Shown piece by piece: positions 6,569-61,604 of a DNA stretch of 64,000 nt (its first letter is position 1; the number at the start of each line of letters is the position of its first letter). The DNA is from a virus, in the IMG/VR virus record IMGVR_UViG_3300036785_000370, positions 7,991 to 71,990 of that record; one strand, written 5' to 3'. A model generated the notes under the pieces. The model was not told the DNA's origin. It saw only the letters and a list, made by a program, of their open reading frames with translations, and made no database searches. The translations under genes were made by a program, and so were the position numbers.

Positions 6569-7056
6569 GTCACGTAACACCAGAGTATAACAGAGGATGC
6601 CCCGAATGCGGGGCACATGAAGGTCATTACATGATGTGTAGCTCCAACCCGCTGCACGAACATTTAAACGGAGAAGGAGGTGATGTCTTGTGCCCGACGA
6701 CGATGAAAATGTCGGTGGATGACGGCGCGGCGACCGTTCAACCCGTAGTCGCGCTGATAAATGAAGGCGAAGTCCTATTGGACAAACATATGCATGACAT
6801 GTTGCCAGTTTCGGTCAGGAGAGAGGATATCCCACGAGAGGTCACAGAGGCGGCCGAGCTGGTTAATGACTGGATGGTCCGCAACGGTCTTGAGCATTGG
6901 CAACTGGGGCCAGTGGCCGATCGCAAGCTGGTTCATAAGCTGGAACAGCGCATCAAGATTTTGGAACTACAAACGACGACGACGCCAGACGACGTTATCA
7001 AGTGGATTCGCGAACACCCAACCCGTGTAGGCTACGTGCTGCAAGCAGCCCAATAA
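6565..7056 (+). CDS. Hypothetical protein
   Basis: ORF with coupled start/stop overlaps on both sides. Confidence 0.5.
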   Translation: MSHVTPEYNRGCPECGAHEGHYMMCSSNPLHEHLNGEGGDVLCPTTMKMSVDDGAATVQPVVALINEGEVLLDKHMHDMLPVSVRREDIPREVTEAAELVNDWMVRNGLEHWQLGPVADRKLVHKLEQRIKILELQTTTTPDDVIKWIREHPTRVGYVLQAAQ

Positions 7057-7511: not shown

Positions 7512-8540
7512 CCACCAATGACAAGATCAACGCCAAACTGGACGAATGGGAAACGCGCCAAGGGTCAGCTTCATCAATCAGGGGACTTGACCAAAGTGAA
7601 TCATTGTCTCTCATCGCCGCCCTACGAATTGCGCTGGAAGCATTGCAACGTTGCGAGAAGCGCACGCTTCACGCCAAGAACGGCATCTTCGCCATAGCCG
7701 AGAAACTGGGAGTTAAGCCATGACCACACCACAACCACGCGCTGATGAATTAAGGCATGAGTGCATGAAATGTCTTCTATGCCTTTACCTCGCCGCAGAT
7801 AAAAGCGTTGCCGACGACGTGAACAAAAAAGTGAAGGAGTATATCAATTATCTTGAGACAAGAAACACCCAACTAGGGAAACTCGAATGAATAGTGATGT
7901 TAATGAGGCTAATAAATTCTACCATGAACTTCATAATGTCGTTAAACGATGGATGAACGAAGGCGATGTTTTGACGACGTTTGAGATCATTGGGGCTCTT
8001 GAAGCGGTTAAGGGTGATGTAGTTGACAGTCTAATAAAATGGAACCGGAATAAAGACGATGCCCTTACCTGAAAAAACGGTTGATAACCCCGGGAGTGAG
8101 ACCATGACACCACAACCACACGCTGATGATGATTTCCTGATGACTGAATTGGCGCGGAGGGGCTATACCTCGAAAGACGTTCGTGATTTGGCTGATAAGA
8201 TTGAAGCTAAGGTTAAATCCTTAAAGCCATGTAAATCAAAAATACGATTTCGCGGTGAAACTCTCGAATGCATGGACTACGAAGGACACAAAGCTTGTCA
8301 TTACCATCTGAACGTCGCATGGCCATTATGACCACCCCACAACCACACGACAAGATCAACGCCAAACTGGATTACTGGGAGAAACACTTCGCTTGCGAAC
8401 CTAGAACCAGAAGCCTAATCGCCGCGCTGCGAATTGCGCTGGAATACATGAATGATCCTACACCGATCATCTACGCATCGAGAAGTCAAATATTGTGCCG
8501 CATAGCCGAGAAACTGGGAGTTGAGCCATGACATCACAAC
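7508..8540 (+). repeat. Cluster of small ORFs sharing repeated 5' and 3' DNA segments
   Basis: 23-nt identity 7520-7542 / 8349-8371; 22-nt identity 7693-7714 / 8501-8522; related ATGAC..CACAAC starts at 7720, 8104, 8328, 8528. Confidence 0.8.
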
Positions 8541-9220
8541 AGGCAACTGAACTACTTCAATTAGGCCACCAGATTCACTTGTTGCTTTATATCATGCTGG
8601 CATGTCTTGGGCTGCTTATCGGAATAAGTTTAGCCAAATGACCCCACAATTACGCGCTAACGTTTGGATGCGATGTTACAACGTTTGGGATTGGCTATAT
8701 AACCATCTTTGGCATCACCGATGGTGGGGTCAAAAGTTAATCATGTGGAAATTACGACGACGATGGAGGAGTGATGAAGGACACTGAGCTACTCGATTTC
8801 ATACAGCGCAACGGCATCCAGATCTGGCCAGTGCGTTCAAGCAGATATTCGCCTGTGGTCGCGTGGTACGCGCAAAACGTTCTGCCGTTCATACAGGCAC
8901 AAGGAGCGACAGTGCGCGAGGCTCTGACCAATTTAAAGAAAGGGATCGATGAAAATACACACGCATGACGGTAGGATGGTATTACTGCCGACTAACGAGG
9001 TGGATCGGAAAGAACTTCGGAGAATACAAAAGGACTTAGATAGCCAAAAGGCAGTGTATCTTATTGAGTACAAACAACGCAAAATAAGGTCGCTAGCTGT
9101 TTGGTTGCGACAAATTGCAGGAGATCCATGCGATGAGCGAACTGACATTTGAGGACGAACTAAACGCGGGAAGTAGGTCGTCTTTCACTAAATTCCCGCA
9201 AAAACTGAAAGGAAAAAGTT

Positions 9221-10111
9221 ATGGGTTTCGGCTCATTTGATCCAAACGCCTACCGTGCATTCGCTGCAAGCACGTCGGGAAAATCAACGCAGCAAATCTA
9301 TACATCGACCAAGCTCGATGATTACCTCAACCCGAAAGGAGTGAAGATCAGAGAATCTCGTGACAGCGACGATCATCCAAAGTCAACGCCACTCATCGTG
9401 GCTCTGGATGTCACCGGCAGCATGGGAATATTGGCAGACACCATTGCCAGGAAGGGACTGGGTGTGCTGTTCAACGATGTGATCGACCATGAACCAATCA
9501 CCGATCCACAGATCATGTTCATGGGTATCGGCGATGCGCGATGCGACCAGTCGCCGTTACAAGTCTCGCAATTCGAGAGTGACAACCGGGTTGTGGAGCA
9601 GCTGACGAAGCTGTACCTGGAGCATGGCGGCGGAGGGAACGCCGGCGAAAGTTACGATCTCTCGTGGTATTTCGCGGCGCGTCATACAGAGCACGACAGC
9701 CACGTGAAACGCGGGAAACGCGGGTATTTGTTCACAGTAGGAGACGAACCAGCGCCGCCGGGGTTAACAGTGGATCAGATCGCGGAGTTTATCGGGGACA
9801 AGATCGAAGTGAACCTTACGGCCAAGGAGCTGCTGAATGAAGCGCAGCGCACCTACAACGTGTTTCACATCGTGGTGGAGGAGGGCGGTGGCAAGAGTTA
9901 TCCGAACACGCTTGGATCATGGACTGATCTATTGGATGAGCGCGTGATTCGTCTACCGGATCACACGCAGCTTGGAGAAACAATCGTTGCCGCGCTATTG
10001 ATGGCCGAGGGCGCCGACAAACAGCGCGTAGCCACGAAATACGGGCAACTTGTTGGGAACGCGGTCGGCCATCTCCCGCGTGCTCGTCAGCCACGTTTAC
10101 TGCCAGCGTGA
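9221..10111 (+). CDS. von Willebrand factor A (vWA) domain protein
   Basis: MIDAS-like LDVTGSM, GIGD, GGGGN.GESY, FTVGDE. Confidence 0.85.
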   Translation: MGFGSFDPNAYRAFAASTSGKSTQQIYTSTKLDDYLNPKGVKIRESRDSDDHPKSTPLIVALDVTGSMGILADTIARKGLGVLFNDVIDHEPITDPQIMFMGIGDARCDQSPLQVSQFESDNRVVEQLTKLYLEHGGGGNAGESYDLSWYFAARHTEHDSHVKRGKRGYLFTVGDEPAPPGLTVDQIAEFIGDKIEVNLTAKELLNEAQRTYNVFHIVVEEGGGKSYPNTLGSWTDLLDERVIRLPDHTQLGETIVAALLMAEGADKQRVATKYGQLVGNAVGHLPRARQPRLLPA

Positions 10112-11169
10112 AGCGGGCTCGCGTCGTAATTGGAGCGAACTTCGGCGACGAAGGTAAAGGGCTCCTCGTAGATTACCTTTGCATGGATGGCGCAGAGGCC
10201 GTTGTTCGCTTCAATGGCGGCGCAAACGCCGGGCACACCGTTGTTCTACCCGACGGTGTCAGGCATGTTCATCGCCATTTTGGATCTGGCACGCTTCGGG
10301 GGATACCGACTTACTTGTCTGAGTTTTTTGTGTGTAACCCGATTCTTTTCTTCAATGAGTTAAAGGAGTTGCAGACGTTAGGTCTGAAGCCAGTTGTGTT
10401 TGCTCACCCCGATTGCTTGGTCACCACCTTCATCGACATGATTATTAATCAGGAGAAGGAGACAAGACGAGGAGCAAAGCGGCACGGTAGTTGCGGGGTT
10501 GGGCTATGGGAAACTGTGATCAGATCGAAGATTCCTGAATTAAAAATTACCTATGCCGATTTGATGTTTAACCGACACACTCTGGAAGCCAAGCTGTTGA
10601 GGATCTGCGGAAAATGGTCGCAATATCGCATTGGCCGAAAGATTCAGGAGCCAGAAGCAATCGAACACTTTCTGAAATGTTGCGAAGCGTTCCAGTGGTA
10701 TGTTGAGCCCGGTGGAATAGGCCGGTTCAACGACGTCATCATGGAAGGAGCGCAAGGGTTGCTGCTTGATCAAGATAACAAGCAGATGCAGCCGCATGTG
10801 ACCGGGTCGTCGACGGGAATGACAAATCCCGAGATCTTGTTTCAGCGCGGTGATTTTAATGAGGTGGAAGCTTATTACGTTTCCAGAACCTATCTTACCC
10901 GGCACGGTGCTGGATTATTGCCAGGCGAGGATTCGCAGTTGAGCTACGTGGATGACACGAATATCGATGGGCCGTGGCAGGGGCGGCTGCGTTTTGCTCC
11001 ATTGGATGACGCACTGAAGCTTCGCATTGCAGCAGATGCGGCTGGGGTTCCACACGAACTGGTTCTTACTCATTGTGATCAACTGACTCCGCCAACTATC
11101 GCTGACCTCTATTCATCGGGTTCAACGCATCTGGATGTGAGTCAAGCTGCTGAGACCATAATGGTATGA
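10108..11169 (+). CDS. purA: Adenylosuccinate synthetase-like protein (short PurA-like form)
   Basis: GANFGDEGKG P-loop, RFNGGANAGHT, EGAQGLLLD, PHVT.S.TG, TRHGAG. Confidence 0.8.
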   Translation: MKRARVVIGANFGDEGKGLLVDYLCMDGAEAVVRFNGGANAGHTVVLPDGVRHVHRHFGSGTLRGIPTYLSEFFVCNPILFFNELKELQTLGLKPVVFAHPDCLVTTFIDMIINQEKETRRGAKRHGSCGVGLWETVIRSKIPELKITYADLMFNRHTLEAKLLRICGKWSQYRIGRKIQEPEAIEHFLKCCEAFQWYVEPGGIGRFNDVIMEGAQGLLLDQDNKQMQPHVTGSSTGMTNPEILFQRGDFNEVEAYYVSRTYLTRHGAGLLPGEDSQLSYVDDTNIDGPWQGRLRFAPLDDALKLRIAADAAGVPHELVLTHCDQLTPPTIADLYSSGSTHLDVSQAAETIMV

Positions 11170-11420
11170 AAGGGAAACGCACATTCGCAAGAGACGCTAC
11201 GGAGCTACGAAGAGCGCTCATCGCTGAGATAAAGAAGCGGCCGCATATCGACGGCCGGGTGGGCGTCATCGTTCTGCAAGACATGGCTTACGAGGCCGCT
11301 GTGATCGTCCACGGCAAAGAAGGCGCCATCGATTTTATAAGTGGGCTGATCAATATGCGGGCAAGCAACCCGATCAAATATCCGTGAATTTTTCCCCCAG
11401 GACGCAACAACCAACCACAT

Positions 11421-12020
11421 ATGAAAGAAAAACAAAAAGGCATGGAAGTAAAGATAACGTTCAAAGAGGAAATCCTCGGGACCGCCTCCGGCGATCCCAA
11501 GATCCACACTGAATTCGTTATCAGCAAAGCACCCGATGCTAAGACCCTCGAAGAGGAAGTCGCGGCGATCGGCGTTGAAGGAGTAGTGGAAAAATCGAAA
11601 TCGATATTTCCGAAGGAGAACGGGAAACCGTTTCTTTATGATTACCAAATTAAAGGGTTTTTCAAGGGAGCTTGCAGCGCGCTCGCCAGGGTGCCTGACA
11701 CCTTGAGCAGCAAGCTGAAGGCATACAAGAAGGTGATAGACGGGACCATCTTCGTGTTTCCTCGGAAGATATTCTTCAATGAGATCCATGACATTGGAGA
11801 ATGCCAGAGGCCGCTGCGAGTTCAGACGCCACAAGGTGAAAGAGTCGCACTGGCCAACAGCGAAACGCAACCGTCGGGAAACTCGATTACCTTTAGTGTG
11901 CTGTGTCTTAACAAAGACAACATCGCGCTGGTGGAAGAGTGGCTCGACTACGGTGAGCTCTCTGGGATCGGTCAATGGCGCAATAGCGGCAAAGGCCGGT
12001 TCACCTGGGAAAAATGCTAG
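11421..12020 (+). CDS. Stand-alone RAMP / Cas7-like RNA-binding protein
   Basis: N-terminal strand MEVKITFKEEILGT, YQIKGFFK (RAMP IKG helix), thumb-like RPLRVQTPQGERVALANSE, C-terminal glycine-rich loop GIGQWRNSGKGRF; no CRISPR-type cas operon around it. Confidence 0.75.
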   Translation: MKEKQKGMEVKITFKEEILGTASGDPKIHTEFVISKAPDAKTLEEEVAAIGVEGVVEKSKSIFPKENGKPFLYDYQIKGFFKGACSALARVPDTLSSKLKAYKKVIDGTIFVFPRKIFFNEIHDIGECQRPLRVQTPQGERVALANSETQPSGNSITFSVLCLNKDNIALVEEWLDYGELSGIGQWRNSGKGRFTWEKC

Positions 12021-12709
12021 GGCAAGGGAGCGTCCGGCAGTGCGGTGTAAAGGCGTAGCACAGTGTGGCGTTGTAAGGCGTAGCAAAGGCGTAGCTATGA
12101 GCAGCGATGCCAAGGCAGGGCGCCGAGCGGAGCGGCTTCGAACAGACTAGCAATGGGCAAGGCAAAGATGCGTAGGGTGCGTAGGGCGATGCGACGCAAA
12201 GGCAATGCGTATCCCAGCAAGGTTCAGCATAGCAAGGGCAAGGCTAAGGCCAGCACGGCAACAACAATGCAACGGACAGCACTGCGGAGCTGCGGGCAGG
12301 GCGACGAAGATTGTGGCTCGGCCGAGCAATGCGGTGCATTGGCACTGCTCAGAAGCTCAATGATCGGTCCCGCGCGGCAAAGCAAAGGCAAAGCCAAGTT
12401 AGCAGCGCGCCGCGCAGCCCAGCAAAGGCAAAGCATGGCAAGGCGGCGAGACGACGGGCACAGCAAAGGCTCGGCCCAGCTTAGTAGCGCGACGCGACGC
12501 AAAGGCAAAGCCCAGCTAAGTAACGCGCAGCGAAGGCAAGGCCCAGATTGTTGGCGACGCAAAGCGAAGCTGTGTCAAGCAAAGGAAAAGCGAAGACTAG
12601 AACCGACGAGCACAGCAAAGGCGCGCCAGGGCGCTGCGAGGTGGTGCGGGGCACTGCAAAGCGAAGGCACCGAACAGCACTACGGAGAACTGCGAAGCAC
12701 AGCAAAAGG
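12021..12709 (+). ncRNA. Pentamer-periodic array (NNNG[C/A/T])n punctuated by AAAGGC-like hexamers; putative guide-RNA array for the RAMP protein
   Basis: 12049 AAAGGC GTAGC ACAGT GTGGC GTTGT AAGGC GTAGC AAAGGC; 12465 AAAGGC TCGGC CCAGC TTAGT AGCGC GACGC GACGC AAAGGC. The periodicity is directly visible; RNA function is inferred. Confidence 0.7.
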
Positions 12710-12723
12710 GGACACACCTTCCA

Positions 12724-12990
12724 GTGAGATGGATCTTCACATCAACAGTTGATCCGACGAAACTGGAAGGTGTTGTCTCGAGCCGATGCGGCCGTTTCGT
12801 CGCTTACTCGCGTTCGTTACGCAAGTGGTTCATGGTCTACCCGGGTGGCGAGACGCCGATCGCCGAGCCCGAAATGATCCTGGTGGACGAGGACTGGGCC
12901 CGAGCCAACAGGAATTTAAGCAAAGTGGTAAAATTCGAAAAGCCGCGGGGCCGCCGGCGGAAAAGTCAGCAACTTATATTGGATCTATGA
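12724..12990 (+). CDS. Hypothetical protein
   Basis: ORF resuming just after the array; ATGA overlap with a downstream small ORF ending at 13184. Confidence 0.5.
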   Translation: MRWIFTSTVDPTKLEGVVSSRCGRFVAYSRSLRKWFMVYPGGETPIAEPEMILVDEDWARANRNLSKVVKFEKPRGRRRKSQQLILDL

Positions 12991-13246
12991 GTGGAATCAA
13001 AATTAGAAGCCTTCGGCGCGAGCGCATCCACAAGGAGAAAGTGATCGCTAAATTGGAAAAGCTCCGGATGCTAAAAGCTAATCTGGACACCTGGGAGTCG
13101 ATGCCAAATCCTGATTACGATTACCTCCGAGAACTGAGGGCACGAATTAGGTCGGTCGAGACGCAATACAACGCGATGGCGTGAAATTTTTTGGCTGCAA
13201 TGCATTTTCCTTTTGACAGCGCCGTATACATCCGCTCAATGTCTTT

Positions 13247-13352
13247 TGTGCGTTTCAAACGATGCAACTCTACACACCAAATCTCTGGTCGGCGGTCGGG
13301 TAGGAAACGCACACCTCGGGTCTCATACCCGGCGCTCGACTGTCGATCAGAG
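13247..13352 (+). ncRNA. Structured RNA (three-way junction) whose loop is complementary to an upstream site; C4/CI antisense-like
   Basis: 18-bp stem 13283-13300 / 13335-13352 with 4 G-U pairs, enclosing hairpins 13302-13316 and 13317-13331; GAAACGCACA (13304-13313) is the reverse complement of TGTGCGTTTC (13247-13256). Confidence 0.6.
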
Positions 13353-13373
13353 GCTTGGTAGGTAGGCGCACCA

Positions 13374-15089
13374 GTGTCGATTCTGAAGGTTAAACCACCG
13401 GCATCTTCGGGGCCGAAACTTCAGGTCAAAGACACCCCTTATAAACCGCCGGCGCCGCGCGAGGATACCCCACAAACTGAGGTCCCAGCACCCAGGGGCA
13501 ATGAACTAGCACGAGAACTCCAGAACGATATTAAGACCGCTGCGGCCGCAGGAAGCAAATCGCGAAAATCTAAGCAGCAGGAATCACTCGAGGGGCTACA
13601 ATCCCAAGAATCCGAACAGGGTGTCATCGGTTCGATGCTCACTGAGCCAGAGGTCGCGATCCCAGTCGTCTTGAACAGGCGTATTTCCAAATGGGAATTC
13701 TTCAACCCGATTCATCAGACACTCTTTGTGGCATTGATCGATATGTGGGAAAGCGCCGTTAAAGTCGATCTGGTAACGTTCACGCAGTATCTGCGCGACC
13801 AGAAGATCCTCGATCAAGTCGGCGGTGCGGGGAATATCACGCAGTTTTTCGCGTTCGTGCCGACGGCAGCCAACGTTGATTATTACATCGACACCCTGTT
13901 CGAGAAAAAGGTGCGCCGGGACCTCTATAACCTGAGCAACCGGATGGGCCGGGCCGCGATCGGTGTCACCGAAGAAAGTTCCGACGAACTGCTGACCAAA
14001 TTTGCCGGCCAATATGAGCGCATGTTTAGGTTTACCAAGAACTCGGGGTTCGAGGACGCAGCGCATCTGCTCAACGGGGATAAACCGGTGCCCCCGATCC
14101 AGATCGTGCGCAAAATTGTGCACCGCGGCAGTAAGCTGATCTTGGGCGGCGGATCTAAAACGCAAAAGACCTGGGCCTTGATGGCGCTCGCGCTCTCGGT
14201 GTCCACTGGGAGTGACTGGTGGGGATTTCACACGCATCGAAGCCGAGTTTGTTACATTAATCTTGAGCTCCAAGACTGGTCATTCCACGAACGGCTCGTC
14301 GCAGTCGCTTCCAAGATGGACGTTAAACCGGAGGAGGGCTGGCTCCAGGTGCTTAACCTCCGCGGGCACGCGCAATCGATCGAAGATTTGCGCCGGCACT
14401 TTGCCATGATGCTCAAGAGCGGGTTTTTCGCCCTGGTGATAATCGATCCTGTTTACAAAGTTCTTGGCGGCCGCGACGAGAACAAGGCCGGCGACGTCGC
14501 GACGCTCCTCAACGAGGTGGATCGCATTACGGTCGAGGTCAACGCCGCGGTGGCTATGGCGGCGCATTTCAGTAAAGGCAACCAGGCCGCGAAAGAGTCG
14601 CTGGATCGAATCGGCGGCTCTGGGGTGTTCTCTCGTGATCCAGACTCTATCCTAACCATGACGCCGCACGAGGACTCCGACTGCTTTACTGTCGAATCAA
14701 CGTTACGTAATTTGCCGCCCATATCGCAGTTCGTGGTGCATTGGGATTACCCAGTCTTTATTCGCGAAGAGGAAAAGAATCCAGGTCGCCTGAAAGGCAC
14801 CCCTGGAGCCAAGCCACAATGGTCCGAGAGCCATATAATTGAGCAGATGAGCATCATTAACGGCTGGGCAACGGCGAAGTTGGCGAAGCGCTTGGCTGAC
14901 GAAAAAGGGATGTCCCGGGCGACCTTCTACCGGTTACTAACCAAGCTCGAGGACAACGGCAAAATTCAACGGCAAGAAGACGGCTTATGGTATAAAGTTT
15001 CTCAGGTCTCACAATCCGCTGAAAACAAATCTGAGAATAGTGAGACAAATCAGTCTCAAGATGTCAAAAACGAATCTGAGACATTATGA
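13374..15089 (+). CDS. Replicative helicase: DnaB N-terminal domain fused to RepA/AAA_25-type ATPase, with C-terminal HTH-like region
   Basis: EQGVIGSML...HQTLF...DLVT...VGG...VPTAANV.YY (DnaB-N); Walker A-like GGSKTQKT; Walker B LVIIDP; AHFSK, GSGVF; C-terminal SRATFYR. Confidence 0.8.
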   Translation: MSILKVKPPASSGPKLQVKDTPYKPPAPREDTPQTEVPAPRGNELARELQNDIKTAAAAGSKSRKSKQQESLEGLQSQESEQGVIGSMLTEPEVAIPVVLNRRISKWEFFNPIHQTLFVALIDMWESAVKVDLVTFTQYLRDQKILDQVGGAGNITQFFAFVPTAANVDYYIDTLFEKKVRRDLYNLSNRMGRAAIGVTEESSDELLTKFAGQYERMFRFTKNSGFEDAAHLLNGDKPVPPIQIVRKIVHRGSKLILGGGSKTQKTWALMALALSVSTGSDWWGFHTHRSRVCYINLELQDWSFHERLVAVASKMDVKPEEGWLQVLNLRGHAQSIEDLRRHFAMMLKSGFFALVIIDPVYKVLGGRDENKAGDVATLLNEVDRITVEVNAAVAMAAHFSKGNQAAKESLDRIGGSGVFSRDPDSILTMTPHEDSDCFTVESTLRNLPPISQFVVHWDYPVFIREEEKNPGRLKGTPGAKPQWSESHIIEQMSIINGWATAKLAKRLADEKGMSRATFYRLLTKLEDNGKIQRQEDGLWYKVSQVSQSAENKSENSETNQSQDVKNESETL

Positions 15090-15254
15090 GATCATTTTAC
15101 GTTTTTCGCGTTGTCTCAACCCCTTCTAAAGAAAAGAGTGAGATGAGACTAAAATATCTCATGTCTCACATCTCAATCTCATCTGTCTTCAGTCTGTCTG
15201 TCTCAGTCTCACAGACTCTATCCCATTGGGGAGCCCTTTCTATGAGACTGAGAC
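15006..15254. repeat. Iteron-like (G/A)TCTCA repeat cluster, candidate replication origin
   Basis: 16 copies of RTCTCA or its complement TGAGAY counted in about 250 bp at the helicase 3' end. Confidence 0.7.
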
Positions 15255-15298
15255 AGACTGAAGAGGAGAGAAGAAAATAACCCCCTACCCCCTTCTTT

Positions 15299-15781
15299 AT
15301 GGCCCGGCAATTTCAACTCGACCCGATGCGCGGATTCGATCCGTCCAAAGAAATCGCGCCGCCGCCGCCGCCGTCTCGGATTCGACCGCCCCCTCGGCCT
15401 GCGGACTGGGACGACGCATTGCACGATTACGACGAGGTCGGCGACGTTAACATCCTCGGCGTGTCGTTCGATGTGGACTGGGATTATCTGTTTGCGCGCC
15501 TGGACTTCACCAAAGGCAAATGGTGGCTGATCGTGCGCGACGCTGACGCAAATGGCGACGAGCGCATCCGCGTGCAAGAACTGCCTAACAGTATAATCAA
15601 CGCAGTCTTGGAAGACTTCGTCGACCTATGCGATGACTTCGATCGGGCCCGGCTGGAGCGGACCTGGTTGAAGCGAATGTTTCGGCGTCGCGATGAAAAG
15701 TCGTATCGTTTCGGTAAAGTCCCCTGGCGCGAGGAACAGCCACCGCCAGAGTCACCGAACCCGCAGCTGGAACTTTTATGA
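15299..15781 (+). CDS. Hypothetical protein
   Basis: ORF, ATGA overlap with the next gene. Confidence 0.5.
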   Translation: MARQFQLDPMRGFDPSKEIAPPPPPSRIRPPPRPADWDDALHDYDEVGDVNILGVSFDVDWDYLFARLDFTKGKWWLIVRDADANGDERIRVQELPNSIINAVLEDFVDLCDDFDRARLERTWLKRMFRRRDEKSYRFGKVPWREEQPPPESPNPQLELL

Positions 15782-16185
15782 GCTACGATGATGACCAGTT
15801 CGATTTGTTCGAGCGAACCCATACCCATTCGCCCGGTCTTGAAACTGAGACTTTAGCTGCGGCCAAGACGTTGCTATCGGTGGCTTCGATGCGAAACCGC
15901 ATCATGCAGGAATTGTCCGAAGCTGGGGAATGGGGATTGACGCCGGACGAATACGCCAAAAGACACGAGAGCCTGATCAACACCGTCCGCCGGCGCTTCA
16001 CCGATCTGTGGAAGGACGGCCTCATTCGTCATCACCCAGATGGCAGAACGCGCCTTAACAGCGATCTCAACGAGTGCATCGTGTGGGTGACAGGGTGCGA
16101 TCCAGGTGCCTCTGGGATGACCGAAAGCAGGATTGCTCGGCTTCGGGCGCAACTCAGGGAACACGGCATTCAACCATGTTGTTGA
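15778..16185 (+). CDS. Winged-helix DNA-binding protein
   Basis: GLTPDE...INTVRRRFTDL...G.I...G..R.N......VW. Confidence 0.6.
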   Translation: MSYDDDQFDLFERTHTHSPGLETETLAAAKTLLSVASMRNRIMQELSEAGEWGLTPDEYAKRHESLINTVRRRFTDLWKDGLIRHHPDGRTRLNSDLNECIVWVTGCDPGASGMTESRIARLRAQLREHGIQPCC

Positions 16186-23235: not shown

Positions 23236-23733
23236 TCAAGCCCGAAATTTTTCTTGGCCGATGTAAGTCACTTTCCAGGCGTGCTTGATCAGGGTCCGCG
23301 CGCCGTTGCGCTGCCAATCGCGCGCTTTGCCGTTCACGATCGCGAACGCGTGCCGGCGTTTGAGGACCAGGTAGCGGCCGGCCGGATGCTCGCGTATGAA
23401 GCGCTTCATAGTCACGCGCCAGGGCACCTCGGATTTAGGCCCAAGTTCGACTGGATACTCCCAGGCCAGTGCGTGCTCGCGTTTGGCTTTAGCTTCGGCT
23501 CTGGCGTGTTGCCGGCACAGGTGGATCCGCTCGAACCGGAACTCTGGCAGCTTACCTTGCTCGATCGTCGGCTTAAGGCTGATCCCGCGGTTATTCTTTC
23601 GGCCGGCCCGAGCCAGCGCTCTGTGCGCGATCAGCCAGGGCACGCCCGCGGCTATCGAGAGCGCGTTGACAGTGCAGGCGTTGCGCTCCTTGTTTCCCTC
23701 TGGCGCGTTGCTGGTGAACTGGAATTCGATCAT
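23236..23733 (-). CDS. Phage hypothetical protein
   Basis: ERNACTVNALSIAAGVPW..AH...GRKNNRG, HAFAIVNG. Confidence 0.6.
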   Translation of the reverse strand: MIEFQFTSNAPEGNKERNACTVNALSIAAGVPWLIAHRALARAGRKNNRGISLKPTIEQGKLPEFRFERIHLCRQHARAEAKAKREHALAWEYPVELGPKSEVPWRVTMKRFIREHPAGRYLVLKRRHAFAIVNGKARDWQRNGARTLIKHAWKVTYIGQEKFRA

Positions 23734-41467: not shown

Positions 41468-44400
41468 ATGCCAGAGAGTACGATCACTCTCGGAGGTCCG
41501 CCAATTCAAGCTTCGCTTGGTGGGCCTCCCCAGCCGCAGCCGACCGCAACGCCGTTTGATCCAAACGCGTTCCTTAAAGCTACTCAGGATCAGCAAAACG
41601 TTCAGGAGGATTTTGATCCTAAAACCTTTATTCAACAGGCGGACCAGGCCGAATCGTCATTTAACCCTGACGAATTTGTGAAGAAGGTGGACGAAAGCGC
41701 CCCTTCGATGGTGATTAACGCCGCACTACAGGGCGACGCCAATGTGCATCCAGCGCAGATCGCCACGGCCGAGTCGGCTCAATTCGCCGATCAAAGTCCA
41801 CAGGAAAAGTTGTGGAACGGTATGCTCGGCATGTGGCAGCAAGTGCCGGACTGGCACCACCTTTTAGGCTCTTTTGAGGACGGCGCAAAGAAGATCTGGA
41901 ATCTTCCTCTGGAATGGAACCAGCAGCTTATGCAGCCGACGACCCATCCACTTGGGCCGCCTATGCAGGACACCAGTAACGCGTATTTGTATGCGAAAAC
42001 TGGTGACCCGAAGTATGGGCCGTGGGGTGTAGGGCTGAAGCCAGCTACTGGACCCGAGGAGATAACGGAATTACCTGCGTCGGCGTTAAAAGTGGGAGAG
42101 CAGGTAGCGGGATTAGCTGGCAAAGAAGCAGAACTTTCGACGCCATATCCTGGTGGGCCGAAAAGTTTCTGGGCGCAGGCGGTGTCGCAAGCAGTGCCTG
42201 GGATTGGACCGTTCATGGCTCCCGAGATCGGAAAGAAAGTCGCGGAGGCAACCGGGGAAGCCACAGAAGCTACCAAGCAGCAATATAACAAAGAGCTTAC
42301 CGCCGTCGCCGAGGGCTCGGACATCGTTCGACAACAGGCGATGGAATGGGCGAATGCCTACCAGAAATACATGGACATCGATCCCAACTCGTTGGCCGCG
42401 CAGATTGCCGATAACGGGATCTGGTTTTTAGCTCCTGCTATCGGGCCAGAGGCAGAAATCGCTGAACTAATAAGTAACATGGTCGCCAAGAGCGCCAGAT
42501 ACACAGTGGGCACGCTCGGGTTGGGTGCATCATACGCTCTTCCTGCTGGGCTTAGGATCGCTGGGGCCGCTACCGTCGATACTGCTTTAAGAAAATATTT
42601 CAATTTGCCAGAGGGCACAGCGGCAGTGCTGACTGCTGCTGGAGTTTTGCCAGCAGAACTAGCAGCCAAAGGAGGCATGGGCAGGTTTTTGTCCAACCAA
42701 TTGCATAAAGCGATTTTGGGCTCATCACAGGAAGATTTCAGGGACGGCATGAAAGCACTTTTGGCGCATGGCGATCTCAATGTAGTGGACTCGCTCCAGT
42801 ATAAGACGGCTCAAGAACTCAACGAAGCGCGGCAGGACGTAGCAGATCTCACAGCAGCCGGGAAGGATACCTCAAAGGCCGACAAGCTGGTTAAAGATCT
42901 AGAGATCAAACATGACAGCATCTTAAATCAGAGATGGACTCAACAGTTCATGGAAGACTGGTCGAACAGGGCGGCGACCGCGGCCGTGAACACTGGGGTG
43001 GGTGCTATGGCGGGAGCGACATTCGGATATGGTGCTGCGCCAACAGGGGAAGAAGCGCCTTACATGGCCAGTGGCGCAGCCGGAGGCGCAGCGATTGTGC
43101 TTCCATTTGCGGTCCACGGCGCGTGGCGTTCACAACTGAGGAACCGAGCCAATTATGGCGCACGCGTTTTTGAAGGGGTATCAAAAGACGCAGGTTTCGA
43201 TCCAGACTATGGCCCTTACGTTGGAGCAGCAAAGAGAGCTGAGACCGCTCAAACTAACGGGTTAATCAGACTTAGCACACGAGGAAGCCCTGATGGAGAG
43301 AAACAGCTTTTTGTTAAACGCGGCTGGGATTTGTTGAACGCCGCGCGCGAACAATTACCGGACTTCAAAGAACCATCGTGGCCAGAAGAAGCGCCGCAGC
43401 CGGTGCAGCAACCAGGGACGCTCATAGCGACTCCACAGGGTTTGGCTCCGGCCCCACCGCCGGTTCCGCGTGAATTGCGGCCGATGCCGAAATCGGTTCT
43501 TGATCAATTGCCAGATGGCTTCGTGGGCAAGGATGGAAACGCCTACAGCAACGGAGACAGAATCAACAATGGCGTCGCGCTTCACGAGTCGCGGCACATA
43601 TCGCAGATGATAGGCGGCATCCTGCGCGCGGCCAAACCGGAATTGATGGAGCGGTTTGGCAACACTTATGATGCTTTGCGCGGCATACCACAGCCTGGCG
43701 CACGCGGGTTCACTCTGATGCCGGAAACCCGATCGACACCTGAGTATCTTCGAGCGGAGCGGGATGCAGACATCGGTAGACTAGTTCTCAAAGACAAGCC
43801 GATTGGATTGCTTTACGGAGGTGAACGTCCCGGTGACGTTGCGTCCCGCTGGGCGAGACAGCTCCTCTACAAATTCATGCCTGAGAAACTCCTGCCCGGT
43901 CCCAAGTTCGATCCGTTATTGGGTACTCCTTCAACAGGACAGGATCGCGTGGAAATGTTGCGCCAGCTATACCGTGATGGCGCGCTCGCGCAGAAGAACA
44001 GATTTTTGCGCGAGCCAGTCGCACCGAGCGCACAACCTCCAGCAGCAGGCGGCGCGGCCGCACCGCCGGCGCATCCGTTTGATCCTTTCTCGCCGGACGA
44101 ACAGGCGGTGGGGCACGATGTGATGCGAATTGCGACCGATCCAAAAACCAAAGGAACGCCGATCGGCGTAAAATTCACGCCTGAGAATGTAGCTGCAGCG
44201 ATCCAAGAAGCCAAAGACAACGGCGTCGAGGTTAACTTTCAGAACATCGCCGATCGGGTGATAGCAGGTCCGAGTCAACGGCCGCCAGTGCCGCAAGGTC
44301 CAGTCGTTGTCCCGCAGCCGAAACCCGAGCCACAGGGCCCAGTCGTAGCTCCGCAGCCGCCGCAACCGGAGCCTCAAGGTCCAGGTGTTGTTCCAGCGGC

Positions 44401-47400
44401 TCCGCATCCGGCTGACGGTTATGAATCGGCACGGATCCGCGGCGAGGACGCGATGCGGCAGAAGCTAATTAATTCCAAGCGTGCGGACAAGGAAGCCGTG
44501 ATCGCGCGTGCAGGGATAGAAGAAGCAGCTAAAGACCACGCCAAAGTGGTCGGGCCGGACTCAGATTTGATCACGTGGCGCACCAATAAATACAACAAAT
44601 CATCCATCTGGGGTACTCGAACCGATGCGAACGATCCGTTTCACCAGATGATAATGAAGCGGGCGAACCTGTCTGATGAAGCGTCTAAGAATCTGGCCGA
44701 CATCGAGGCAAACATGGGTAAGCCCATAACGGTGGATTACGAGCACGCGCCCGGCGAAGGCGGTGAGACTGAGACCGATCGTGCTGAACGGGAAGCTGCT
44801 CGCCGGAAAGCCGGCGCTCCGCAGCGTGTGGCAGGTGAAGGCGAGCGAGAAATACTGACAAAATCGTTCGTGCCAACTTCGATCGAATATTTCCCGCTGG
44901 CCAACGTATTCCAAGCGCATGGGTTTAGCCCAGACAAATTCACTAAGAACGCTCAGATCGTCATAGGCGAAGCCAAGAGGATGGGTTACAAGACCGCGGC
45001 TGAAGTCGCGGCTGATCCTGAAAAGCTCAAGGGTAGCAAGCTCACTTTTGATGGCGTGCACGATCCGTTGATCGTCCAGTATTTCCACCAAACGACCGAG
45101 AATTACCAGAATGGTTACTCGGCGAGCGGCGATCCGATCAAAGGCGCAACCGAAATTAAAGGTGGCAAAACTGTGCCGGTCGTCCCGAACCCAGATTACA
45201 CTCCGCATGTAATCCCGCGGGATTATCGCGACCAGATCAACGCGATGATGGGGAACACTTCGGCCAAGACTGGACAGAAAGCTCTGGCAAAAGCAGCGAA
45301 GACTGGCGAAAAACCTGTCCCGAGTCCAGAGCAGGCCGCAAAGCAAGAGCTAGCAAAACAGAATTACAAGGCACAACCATATTTTAATCCTGAGACAGGC
45401 GAAGTGAACAAATTCCGCAAGGACATGGGTGCGGACGCAGCAGCGAAACTTTCGCCAGTCGCAACCGAAAATCTTGATCCTAATCTGATCAAAGGCGATG
45501 TGCGCGAGGGCGCGGCACTCAACGATTACGAAACGCTTCGGCCGAGCGGATATAATGGCGACCGAGGACAGTTCGCGGCGAAAGGAGTGCCGAAATCGGA
45601 GTATGTGGCCTCTGCGCTCATGCCATCGACGGCTCAAGAAGGTGAGTTCAGGCCGACGCCAGAGGAGATCGAGCAAGGCCGTGCACGCGGCCGCATTGGA
45701 TCGCCTGGGCTCTGGGACACGGCGCAGACCGCCGGGCACGCCGACGAATTGGCAGCGCAACTAGGCGTCGATCCGAAGAAACGTTTCTGGGAACAGAAGC
45801 CCGAGAACCGCCAGAAGATCCAAGATTATTACAAGTGGACTGGCCAGGCGCAATACATGCCGGCCACAGCTGGCTACGATCCTGCATTTAAGCAGCCAGA
45901 GCCAGTGTCAGACGACGTTCTGCGCGCCGCTCTCTCGAGCAATAAAGTTCCGTTTGTAGGCACCAATCGTGATCTTCCAGCAGGCACTCCTATCAGTTCG
46001 CGCATCGATATCCCGTCTTTCCTGCGCTCTGGGATTTACGCGCAAACGATTCACGCGCCGAAGATCGGAAAGAACCTCGGATACGATTCGATCGTTCGCA
46101 TGAAAGGTCCGGTTACTTTCACCGTGCGAGAATCGACGGCCGAGAAGATCAAGAACAGGGAGATGAACAAGGCGCCGATCGCTGCGACAGAAGGGAAATA
46201 CGATCCTGATCGCACGCTGCCGGCTGACATCAACGACTTGAGTAAATGGACGCCTCTGGGCTTCGATCCAATGGAGCACAGTTATTTTTATGATAAGACC
46301 AGCGGCGAGCCGGTGATACGTGCGGATGAGGCGATCCACATCGGTAACACGGTCTACGTCAAGAACCCAGTTTACGGGCAGTCCGCCAATTTCAGATACA
46401 TGCCGTCGACAGCCCCACAATCAGAAGAGTTCAATAGATGGAGCCGCGGCGCACCGGTTGTTCTTGATTCCGCGCCGTTTGATCCAGGGATGTTTTCCAG
46501 TGGTCTGCATCTGCGTGTTGTTGAATCGGGAGTGTCAATTGTAGATAGGGACGGGAACGTAGTTCGAACCATAAGAGACGCACCAGGGACGTCCGCTATG
46601 GGTAGAGCGTCTTACGTGCTGGGACGGTTGGCCGAAGAAGCGCGTTTGAAGGCGGCGCAAGAACATGCCGCGTCCACGTATCAGACAGGCAGGTCAGTAG
46701 TCGTAGGCGCTTACCACGGCACGCCTAACAAAGACTTCACTGTATTTGAACCTGCCATGATGGGTAGCTACACCGGAGCGCCTTCAGCTGAAGAGGGATT
46801 CTTTTTTGCTGGCAAACCTGACACCGCACAAGCTTACACAATCCCGAGATCCGAGAGTTATAGGCATTCCGTTGAGGAATATTACGACAGATACGGTAAG
46901 ATGAAATGGAGGGTGCATGATCCTTACGATAATGTGGTTGCTGATGGATTTCAGAGCGAACCTGAAGCGGTTGATACAGCAATGGCTCTCCAAAGCGCAA
47001 CTAGAGCAAGTATGCCACGAGGCTTGCACGAAGTTTTCGTAAGGTTCGAAAACCCGTTAGTTCACGATTTCGGCGGAGATGAATACCGCGAGAAAAGCTA
47101 TTACACCCTAATTAAGCAGGCCAAGGACGAAGGTCGCGACGGGGCTATCTTCACTAACACATACGATGGCGGCGGCCAGCCAGATAACATCTTTGTTACT
47201 TTCAGGAGTAACGACATCAAATCTACCGCGAACATGGCTCCCACGGAGCATCCTGATATTCATTTAATGCCATCCACGGCGCGTCCCGAACGATTGGATC
47301 GGCCGGCGATCATGCGGAAAGAAGACGAAAAAGTATTTCCAGCTGTCAGGGCGGGAATGCACGCTGAGATTCCGGATGAGTATCCAATCGACCTGGCGGA

Positions 47401-60281: not shown

Positions 60282-61604
60282 ATGAAATTAACCACTGAAC
60301 AGGAAGAAGCCGAAGCCGCGCGCGCCGCAGAGACAGACGCGGCCGCAATGGAAAAGCTGTTATCGGAGACGCCAGCGGACGAGCCAGAGCCCACGCCGAC
60401 GCCGGAACCAGAGCCTGCTGCGCCGCCGCCGGCGGACGAACCGAAACCTCCACCGGCCGACAAGCCACCGCCAGAGCCAGCCGCAGAGATCAAGCCGAAG
60501 GATACGTCTCTGGAGCCGGACGACTTCGAGAAAGACCTCCAGAGCGACAAATACGAGCCTCCAGCTGGAACAACGCGTCATTCGCGCGACATCATCAAGG
60601 CGGTAAAAGACCATGCCACACGGGAGCATCGACTGTATCGCGAGACTGCGGTCGCGAAGGAAGCACTGGAGAAGCAACAGCAGGAGTTGCAAAAGCAGAT
60701 TGCCGCGGGCGCAGCGGATCGCGCGGAGCTCGATCGTCTCCGGCCGATCGTAGAGACGTTCGCGATAGAACGGGATCCGCGCCTCAACGAACGTTTTGGC
60801 ACTGAGATGTCGAAGATAGATCATCGGATCATAGTCAATCTTGTTAACCACGGGCTATCAAAGGAGACGGCTGAATACATAATGAAACACGGCGGCCCGA
60901 CGCAATTCAGCAGGGATTCGGTTTCCCAGGTTGAAGCCGAGGCGGAACACGCCGGCGGAACGCCCGTCCAGATGAGCCACAAGCAATTCTGGGATGAGCG
61001 CGTGGTGAAACAACTCTCTGAAGAAGGTCATCGCCCTGTCAAACTTGCTTTCGACGATGAGACACGGCTTAAAGAATGGCGCGATGGTGAGCTGCGCTCC
61101 AGGCTTTCCAATCGCGAGCAATACTTCAAGGATCTCCAAGAGGAATCAAAAAGGAACGAGGAAGGGTTCAAGGCTGAGTGCAAGAAAGAATTGGACTTAC
61201 AGCTCAAAGATCTGGGTGACCTGGCAAAGCCAAAGACGATCCCGGCAGATGCGACGCCTGAACAAAAGAAGAGGCTAGAGACCTACAATCAAATGGTGTC
61301 AGACGCCACGGCAAAATTCGACACGACATTCTTCGATACTTCCCCAAGGGCGCTGGTCAAAAAGAATCTCGGCTACCTAATGTTAGAGAGCCTGAAAATA
61401 TTCGTGGAGATGAAGGACGCCGAGATCGCGGAAGAGAGGTCCGCTCGAGAGGCGATACAGAAAAAGTGGGATGCCAGTTTGAAAGCGGCTAACACATCGC
61501 ACAGGCAATCGGTGCAACAGCAACCAAAGCCGATTGAGGGTGTGCAGGCGGAGAAAAACGACGGCCGGCGAATGGAAATGATGTTGGAGCAACTGCCGGG
61601 ATGA
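60282..61604 (+). CDS. Capsid scaffolding protein
   Basis: Acidic Pro-rich N-terminus and coiled-coil-like body, upstream of the capsid gene. Confidence 0.6.
   Translation: MKLTTEQEEAEAARAAETDAAAMEKLLSETPADEPEPTPTPEPEPAAPPPADEPKPPPADKPPPEPAAEIKPKDTSLEPDDFEKDLQSDKYEPPAGTTRHSRDIIKAVKDHATREHRLYRETAVAKEALEKQQQELQKQIAAGAADRAELDRLRPIVETFAIERDPRLNERFGTEMSKIDHRIIVNLVNHGLSKETAEYIMKHGGPTQFSRDSVSQVEAEAEHAGGTPVQMSHKQFWDERVVKQLSEEGHRPVKLAFDDETRLKEWRDGELRSRLSNREQYFKDLQEESKRNEEGFKAECKKELDLQLKDLGDLAKPKTIPADATPEQKKRLETYNQMVSDATAKFDTTFFDTSPRALVKKNLGYLMLESLKIFVEMKDAEIAEERSAREAIQKKWDASLKAANTSHRQSVQQQPKPIEGVQAEKNDGRRMEMMLEQLPG

Follow-up and report, generated by a model that had tools for sequence, protein, structure and literature searches.

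What is the dense run of five-nucleotide repeats that begins at the stop codon of a small gene in a phage genome, and how is the gene related to it? The question arises from a stretch of DNA of 64,000 nt (hereafter the window), which covers positions 7,991-71,990 of IMG/VR record IMGVR_UViG_3300036785_000370, a virus record of 71,990 bp. The initial annotation, made from the letters of the sequence, had described at 12049-12709 an array of pentamers interrupted by hexamers whose spacings mostly follow 5n+1 nt, and had proposed that each unit is a separate guide and that the hexamer is a processing or phase mark. From sequence comparison and structure prediction, we consider it very probable that the locus at 11421-12709 is a VIPR-type locus of a phage, composed of a vipr-like gene and an array of the guide RNAs (vrRNAs) of such systems. 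The features concerned are as follows:

11421..12020, + strand: vipr-like gene, encoding the 199-aa minimal RAMP (Cas7-like) protein P0001
12018..12709, + strand: putative vrRNA-type array of ~130 NNNGC (= YNNNG) pentamers in ~15-17 units, beginning at the stop codon of the vipr-like gene
12049..12151, + strand: first three clean units of the array (36, 26 and 41 nt), all of which begin with an AAAGGC or CAAGGC hexamer, from the parse and the motif positions
12384..12703, + strand: eight consecutive units with hexamers at 12384, 12424, 12465, 12501, 12532, 12581, 12617 and 12663 (gaps of 40, 41, 36, 31, 49, 36 and 46 nt)

This identification draws on the Cas7-like fold of the gene product, its homology to the Vipr protein of phage SUSP1, the linkage of gene and array, the shared grammar of the repeats, the turnover of whole units among relatives, and the publication of YNNNG and staggered arrays. 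VIPR has been described only in preprints of 2026, and only the SUSP1 and P. fulva type has been studied in depth. In the parts of the first preprint available to us (10.64898/2026.04.26.720920), Vipr is presented as a minimal RAMP of ~20 kDa, mainly found in phages and proviruses; the vrRNAs consist of 9-16 YNNGG repeats (GGY scaffold, NN guide) and a conserved 3' tail; the targets are double-stranded DNA, with two bases read and one skipped; and 667 systems of seven types are distinguished. The same preprint mentions alternative repeats (NNNGG, YNNNG and NNNNG) and tail-less 'staggered arrays' (Methods section 20, Results and the legend of fig. S18), as well as stand-alone vipr genes (Methods section 18). 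Small RNA sequencing confirmed its ribozyme-interspersed and single-vrRNA architectures, and these parts of the preprint do not state the same for the staggered one. According to the portions available of a second preprint (10.64898/2026.04.26.720927), one protomer binds per repeat and the binary filament has six subunits per turn; in SUSP1 Vipr, G1 is read by H17 and D177, G2 by R138 and W178, and Y3 by R179 and neighbouring residues; natural vrRNAs are said in its Discussion to reach up to 30 repeats. The SUSP1 Vipr protein is RefSeq YP_009199429.1 in the accessible text of a third preprint (10.64898/2026.10.15.759431), and a fourth, likewise as far as its accessible text goes, detected non-canonical VIPR-like arrays of 10 repeats by entropy periodicity, with GAC/NN, CAC/NN, WGT/NN and TGH/NN grammars (10.64898/2026.10.21.760802).

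We computed the identity of the array with itself at successive lags and compared it with that of randomized sequences. Lag-5 identity was 0.443-0.45 (12021-12720 / 12049-12709), as against ~0.25 at adjacent lags, and 1000 dinucleotide-preserving shuffles gave 0.283 ± 0.0175 with a maximum of 0.343 (array z 9.5). When lag-5 periodicity was scanned across the 64 kb (200-nt segments, step 50), only the 13 segments spanning 12001-12800 exceeded the mean + 3 sd, with z up to 7.1. The 5n+1 rule was visible without any parsing, the identity being 0.372 at lag 26 versus 0.321 at lag 25, 0.371 at lag 31 versus 0.273 at lag 30, and 0.386 at lag 36 versus 0.271 at lag 35. Dynamic programming over 12030-12710 parsed the sequence into 110 pentamers, 16 hexamers, 5 tetramers, 2 trimers and 1 heptamer, and the pentamer run is broken every 4-8 pentamers by an AAAGGC-type hexamer. 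Among the 110 pentamers, position 4 was G in 106, position 5 was C in 77 (A 18, T 11, G 4), and position 3 was A in 48 (G 24, T 19, C 19); positions 1-2 were variable, yet A-rich and T-poor. The + strand of the array as a whole (700 nt) contained G 246, A 202, C 179 and T 73. The motif [AGC]AAGG[CA] occurred 16 times in 12049-12709, compared with 4.3 ± 1.9 in shuffles (maximum 11), and 8 of the 15 gaps between matches were equal to 1 modulo 5 (shuffle mean 0.67, maximum 4).

The pentamer array with its hexamer interruptions and 5n+1 spacing was thus borne out, as were the nearly constant G at position 4, the preference for C at position 5 and the bias to A at position 3. Of the 14 hexamer starts listed in the initial annotation, 12 were exact; position 12234 reads AAGGGC (the pattern starts at 12239), position 12704 reads AAAAGG, and three in-phase matches (12158, 12439 and 12537) had been omitted. 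The units are 21-46 nt long and stand head to tail without a tail between them, with irregular stretches at 12152-12197 and 12260-12337. Tandem Repeats Finder (TRF) reported only short local duplications in the array and no long direct repeats. The units at 12465-12500 and 12501-12531 are diverged duplicates (TRF 12462-12542, period 36, 2.2 copies, 75% matches), so that the duplication and divergence suspected in the 12471-12531 area are real; the units otherwise differ from one another, unlike those of a slippage satellite, as had also been claimed. Small local duplications (9 nt x 2, 100% identical; 11 nt x 1.9; 25 nt x 2) at 12169-12186 and 12038-12095 sit in or near irregular stretches, as if short duplications generate new units. 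No match to Rfam at E <= 1 was obtained over 11000-14000, and none by blastn of 9000-16000 against phage records. The array RNA was predicted to fold no better than shuffled sequences (z +0.55), and such an unstructured RNA is as expected for a guide that is coated with protein. Two further segments with weak periodicity in the genome (G000, 6771-6920 and 23571-23720) were rejected as arrays, as 9 and 13 of their ~36-38 units were off-length and 16/27 and 20/25 pentamers carried G at position 4.

The protein encoded beside the array, together with the small flanking open reading frames (ORFs), gave no useful match in Pfam, PHROG or NCBIfam. We compared it at the level of structure and of profiles. 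An AlphaFold2 model of P0001, built from a 40-sequence alignment (mean pLDDT 86.8, pTM 0.80), predicts an RRM core into which a helical segment (28-58) is inserted, a long beta-hairpin (126-150) and, towards the C-terminus, a Gly-rich loop. The first Foldseek matches of this model in the PDB were type VII Cas7 and type III-A Csm3 (TM 0.5-0.58, E 2e-8 to 1e-5, probability 1.00). A profile search of PDB sequences with the 40 homologues matched, over the G-loop region, the same Cas7 at E 4.8e-5 and Csm4 at E 0.0037. The predicted architecture is that of a small single-RRM RAMP with Gly-rich loop, thumb and helical bundle, as in Vipr. Homology to the tested Vipr of SUSP1 (PDB 36pp) was detected by two methods: hhalign of the 40-sequence P0001 alignment (89% probability, E 2.2e-6, 172 columns), and BLASTP, which aligned the C-terminal 35 residues including G-[VI]-G-[DQ]-W-R...G-R-F (E 0.002). 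As a positive control, the GenBank record of SUSP1 contains GGYNN runs on the vipr strand flanking a 195-aa gene, and the identity of this gene as vipr is confirmed by PDB 36pp ('SUSP1 Vipr protein', residues 1-195).

The hhalign alignment relates the scaffold-reading residues of SUSP1 Vipr to those of P0001. W178 and R179 correspond to W186 and R187, conserved in 40/40 and 38/40 homologues, and D177 and H17 correspond to Q185 (37/40) and T21 (T in 30 and S in 7 of 40). In the aligned sequences, the retention of the second G and the pyrimidine of the scaffold in this clade, together with a first scaffold base that is as variable as the guide positions, matches the apparent loss of the D177 and H17 equivalents. 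Across the 119 related loci described below, the G-loop residue was almost always Gln (95 by a loose motif search, 20 unmatched), and for a homologue with Glu at the Gln185 position (P0230) no viral locus was found. We further predicted a complex of three P0001 copies, which scored 0.47 against 0.00 for the best of 3 controls; the mark for this score is reached by 20/30 proteins solved as one-chain pairs and by 1/23 solved as single chains, a calibration that is only rough for a run with a custom alignment and three copies, and resemblance to solved Cas7 filaments may be why the mark was passed. Run-to-run agreement of contacts was at least 26% and partner pLDDT at least 67. The predicted interface is asymmetric and head-to-tail, with residues 74-75, 101-115 and 161-166 facing residues 86-92, 180-181 and 189-190 of the next copy.

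The family of P0001 is large. Among 7470 candidates, 7220 were homologues at E <= 0.001, and clustering at 50% identity gave 1661 representatives. Of 568 candidate stretches from viral contigs, 557 encode a relative; relatives also occur in 39 loci of bacterial genome bins, mostly from gut Clostridia (Oscillospiraceae, Ruminococcaceae and Lachnospiraceae), and 4 uncultured phage records from human faecal samples also gave matches. Carriage by phages or proviruses, as in VIPR, was thus found.

We analyzed whether the linkage of gene and array extends to relatives in 119 loci (80 viral and 39 genomic, from gut metagenome-assembled contigs), which were retrieved with the single P0001 protein. A segment with 5-nt periodicity abuts the homologue in 117 of them (downstream only in 79, upstream only in 10, on both sides in 28), and in one of the two exceptions the contig ends 3 nt after the protein match. 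Periodic segments more than 1.5 kb away from the gene numbered only 13 in 723 kb. All of the abutting arrays (145/145) carry the hexamer motif on the strand of the gene, and they are strongly strand-asymmetric (T-poor). No homologue of any of 13 neighbouring genes of the window was found in the 119 loci, and the commonest family of flanking ORFs there (50/120 loci, mixed strands) does not occur in the window. Since the array adjoins the gene in 117/119 loci that share no neighbours with the window, the gene and the array are judged to be a self-contained cassette that moves between otherwise unrelated phages. The units themselves are unique to this phage: the nearest unit of the same length elsewhere differs at >=23% of positions, and blastn returned one marginal 59-nt match.

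The grammar of the family was determined from 47 non-redundant arrays (19.7 kb), which contained 3139 pentamers, with G at position 4 in 2816, and 547 hexamers. Position 5 of the pentamers was C in 1783, A in 844, T in 385 and G in 127, and the base preceding the fixed G was itself G in 820. The distances from hexamer to hexamer peaked at 31 (144), 26 (97), 36 (65), 41 (37) and 21 (22) nt, with 26, 31 and 36 nt accounting for 306/443. Over the 547 hexamers, the boundary had the motif GC|AANGG(C/A)A: the preceding pentamer ends in G (0.96) and C (0.87), the six bases of the hexamer are A (0.67), A (0.76), N, G (0.86), G (0.99) and C/A (0.59/0.33), and an A follows (0.63). We also counted the minimal changes per column in 96 clusters of homologous units (295 units). 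Positions 1-3 had values of 0.26, 0.27 and 0.30 and position 5 one of 0.17, compared with 0.05 at G4 and with 0.03 and 0 at the two G positions of the hexamer. In L005-L024, which are close relatives, the downstream array has a mosaic structure: whole units have been lost, replaced or exchanged, and the breakpoints lie at the hexamers or just behind them. In one case, the loss of three units has fused the hexamer of one unit to the body of another. The conserved motif of the boundary itself and the turnover of whole units at the hexamers among relatives give indirect support to the idea that each stretch delimited by hexamers acts as a guide in its own right, which we regard as reasonably likely.

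The relatives L005-L024 that have two arrays (e.g. L010, 5591-5920 and 6511-6870) provide a further observation. The array upstream of vipr is nearly constant, with the same seven units in most loci, and the downstream array differs even between near-identical phages; the two arrays seem to be under different selection.

We compared the locus with the type II VIPR of Escherichia phage SUSP1, which comprises Vipr, vap1 and four vrRNAs. Common to both are a RAMP of ~200 aa with a single RRM, a W-R pair in the G-loop, a thumb hairpin and a helical insertion, and tandem pentanucleotide repeats that directly flank the gene on its own strand, with fixed scaffold bases and hypervariable others, in a minimal phage-borne cassette. 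The canonical GGY/NN repeat, in contrast, was not found: the scaffold is NGY, in which only G and Y are fixed, and only the unit-opening hexamer keeps GG. The G-loop has Gln in place of Asp177, and Thr/Ser replaces His17. Units comprise 5-9 repeats rather than 9-16 and lack the ~40-nt pseudoknot tail that follows each SUSP1 guide, a single hairpin standing after the last unit; ~15-17 units are packed into 690 nt, compared with four vrRNAs of ~100 nt; and no vap1-like or other conserved partner gene accompanies vipr in an operon. The similarity of the proteins is detectable only at profile level.

The relaxed scaffold resembles the 'staggered vrRNA arrays' and YNNNG repeats in the available parts of 10.64898/2026.04.26.720920. 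The arrays described in the accessible text of 10.64898/2026.10.21.760802 share the 5-nt period, a non-GGY scaffold and a position beside a Vipr-like fold, whereas they have three fixed positions instead of two and 10 repeats instead of short hexamer-delimited units. Likeness to the backbone of class 1 CRISPR systems (Cas7/Csm3 on crRNA) extends to the fold, the G-loop and the thumb, and the CRISPR proteins form filaments with periodic base flipping; unlike those systems, with a period of 6 nt and no sequence periodicity, the present array has a period of 5 nt and sequence-specific scaffold bases. Neither a repeat-spacer array with CRISPR repeats nor other cas genes or adaptation genes were found here. 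The array is best explained as the YNNNG, tail-less, 'staggered' kind of VIPR, a further example of the kind reported in the 2026 preprints.

The core idea of a guide array, as put forward in the initial annotation, fits the Vipr-like RAMP neighbour and the published pentanucleotide grammar, and transcription, processing at the hexamers, the pairing bases and the targets are inferred. Because no terminator-like site was found in a scan of the + strand between the vipr-like gene and the array, the two would be transcribed together. One Vipr protomer would bind each pentamer, by homology with SUSP1, and its G-loop residues Trp186 and Arg187 would hold the G fixed at position 4 and the pyrimidine at position 5. 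The other, variable bases would be exposed and would pair with double-stranded DNA in a gapped register, two read and one skipped, and this binding would silence genes of competing mobile elements. The unit-opening hexamer AANGG(C/A) would provide the full GG(C/A) scaffold plus one extra base, and its +1 shift would break the 5-nt register of the filament, one transcript giving ~15-17 short filaments of 5-9 protomers. The family-wide mode of 6 protomers (31 nt) would correspond to one turn of the published six-subunit helix. The proposal of the hexamer as a filament break agrees with the earlier idea of a phase mark and with the legend on staggered arrays.

To look for candidate targets, we took the 468 clean guides that all arrays together provided and scanned them over both strands of 1.74 Mb of sequence left unmasked, with 20 global shuffles. 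With a skip of 1, exact 7-unit matches numbered 8, compared with 3.8 ± 1.9 in shuffles, and other skips gave 3-5. The 10 exact 7-unit local matches lay mostly in purine-rich, low-complexity sequence. An excess for three-read, skip-2 matching (15 vs 1.6) was discarded as a trivial period-5 match, of self type, to unmasked array remnants. An 8-repeat guide shared by L044 (6859) and L053 (4669) matched 16/16 read bases at 7578-7600 of the related phage L064, where a gene situated ~1 kb downstream of that phage's vipr array has its Shine-Dalgarno sequence and ATG; the site is purine-rich and the match is not significant alone, so that it is suggestive at most and may be due to chance.

We further scanned IMG/VR for exact matches to two 8-unit guides of the window, which gave 35 and 25 matches, compared with 13 for one reversed-order control; for 16 read bases, some tens of chance matches are expected in IMG/VR. 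The two guides had no contig in common. Thirteen matches of the first guide fell antisense on the signature-motif region of an SbcC/gp46-like ATPase of ~600 aa, with the skipped base at the wobble position, and the sites in the contigs concerned (L123, L128, L130, L135, L140-L143, L145-L148 and L151) differ only at these skipped positions. A further 12 matches came from near-identical contigs. The excess is accounted for by one abundant protein family and one set of near-identical contigs, and no homologue of the ATPase was found in this phage or in the related loci.

Several observations weigh against the assignment to VIPR. With respect to the protein, SUSP1 was not among the matches at E <= 0.01 when 50,697 phage records were searched with P0001 by tblastn, a hidden Markov model built from the 40 homologues missed the SUSP1 Vipr chain (36pp) at E <= 1 although it is present in the searched copy of the PDB, and the hhalign probability of 89% is not above 95%, in keeping with a weak sequence similarity to the tested Vipr. 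No conserved accessory (vap) gene was detected in the flanks of the 119-120 loci, and no sigma-70-like promoter was called on the + strand at 11000-13400. The equation of the 5n+1 grammar with the 'staggered' arrays of the preprint has a figure legend as its sole source. Under the published rule, units of 5-9 repeats would supply only 10-18 read bases, which is few for specific recognition, and the target scans gave no clear signal, the local one showing clear enrichment for none of the read/skip rules completed.

The very large Vipr clade of gut phages could use a code different from that of the tested SUSP1 type, in which the third base also pairs (a 3-read rule) and in which the hexamer is a mark for nucleation or termination, yielding ~17 one-turn filaments without tails, ribozymes or a processing enzyme. 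The three variable bases per repeat would then be due to the loss of the Asp and His by which SUSP1 Vipr recognizes the first scaffold G, here replaced by Gln and Thr, and three read bases per repeat would offset the shortness of the guides. We put this forward tentatively, as possible and on balance rather doubtful.

Apart from the reading of the units as separate VIPR guides, the array might form one long continuous Vipr-RNA filament, or serve as an RNA scaffold or sponge for the protein, the hexamers being tolerated slips of the register. A long filament would fit the 30 repeats that natural vrRNAs can reach in the part of 10.64898/2026.04.26.720927 available, as well as the small number of bases read by guides of 5-9 repeats and the target scans without clear signal. 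However, the hexamers have a conserved motif of their own, with an invariant GG and a stricter GC before it, and their spacing is narrow (26, 31 or 36 nt in 306 of the 443 distances); relatives exchange and delete whole units at them, and a +1 insertion is incompatible with a strict lattice of one protomer per 5 nt. We consider this explanation unlikely.

An element acting as double-stranded DNA, such as a replication origin or an array of iterons or partition sites, is suggested by the position of the array, just upstream of a DnaB-like helicase/primase gene (13374-15089) in a region of replication and nucleotide metabolism, and by the spacing of 26/31/36 bp, which by our own arithmetic corresponds to ~10.3-10.4 bp per two pentamers, near the helical repeat of DNA. 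Yet the helicase and the other neighbours in the window recur in 0/119 loci, while the RAMP gene adjoins the array in 117. The arrays keep to the strand of the gene (145/145) and are strongly strand-asymmetric, the partner protein has a predicted RNA-binding RAMP fold, and the units are hypervariable, whereas iterons are normally near-identical. A DNA-level element is therefore very improbable.

The array feature is real and non-coding. A frame of 199 codons (ORF 12153-12752, + strand) is open across much of it, together with overlapping ORFs, because T-poor sequence has few stop codons by composition; this ORF had no Pfam or PHROG match, self-identity peaks at lag 5 and not at lag 3, and a coding function is excluded by the unit indels of relatives (26, 31 and 36 nt, most of them frame-shifting) and by constraint with period 5, leaving only a minimal chance for protein-coding. 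The 3-nt conservation of codon type that the initial annotation had named as the sign against a guide array was accordingly absent among relatives. Just as remote is a reading of the array as a satellite formed by slippage, as the repeat RNA of a type III toxin-antitoxin system or as a CRISPR array with Cas6-like processing, since the array, although repetitive and beside a small RAMP-like gene on the same strand, has mutually different units with only short local duplications and no structure of 25-40 nt repeats and spacers, since Pfam, PHROG and NCBIfam scans of the neighbours found no other cas family or ToxN-like gene, and since the predicted P0001 fold is closest to Cas7/Csm3 backbone subunits and not to Cas6. 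A TRAP-like NAG-repeat RNA, a CsrA sponge, a primase-site array and a ToxI-like antitoxin were early candidates that were dropped.

The VIPR reading concerns a protein clade that is very large, that resides in gut phages of Clostridia, and that has the least-characterised array architecture, although the VIPR preprints may already cover this clade. Our analysis adds a quantitative grammar for it, the unit-wise turnover at hexamers, and a correlation between residues and bases. The window offers a clean natural example, and the boundary motif, the unit sizes of 26/31/36 nt, the turnover of units and the correlation of Gln185/Thr21 with a free first base could guide work on how tail-less arrays are read and processed.

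The remaining features around the locus are as follows:

9221-10111: gene before the PurZ-like gene, matching only PHROG 2971 (function unassigned there)
10108-11169, + strand: PurZ-like adenylosuccinate synthetase (Pfam PF00709, E 1.7e-37; PHROG 1211 '2-aminooxy adenylosuccinate synthetase', E 1.6e-51)
between the PurZ-like and vipr-like genes: ORF of 73 aa
12709..12780, + strand: strong stem-loop that immediately follows the last unit and may cap or terminate the array transcript at its 3' end
12724-12990 (88 aa) and 12786-13184 (132 aa), + strand: two overlapping ORFs in different frames between the array and the helicase gene, without family match
13374-15089: DnaB-like helicase/primase gene, downstream of the array
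41468-49933, + strand: very long ORF (2821 aa) in the structural region of the genome

The segment 12695-12800, which contains the stem-loop, folds with -41 kcal/mol, compared with -27.5 ± 3.6 in shuffles (z -3.8); the stem-loop has no U-tract and was not called by a consensus terminator scan. The ORF at 12724-12990 starts inside this hairpin. Because of the PurZ-like gene, the phage may replace adenine with 2-aminoadenine, and if it does make such DNA, the question arises of how gapped RNA-DNA recognition copes with modified genomes. Elsewhere in the window, the segment 60301-60500 (+ strand), which has no 5-nt periodicity, lies inside ORF 60282-61604 and contains extremely little T (9 of its 200 nt, with C 73 and G 65).

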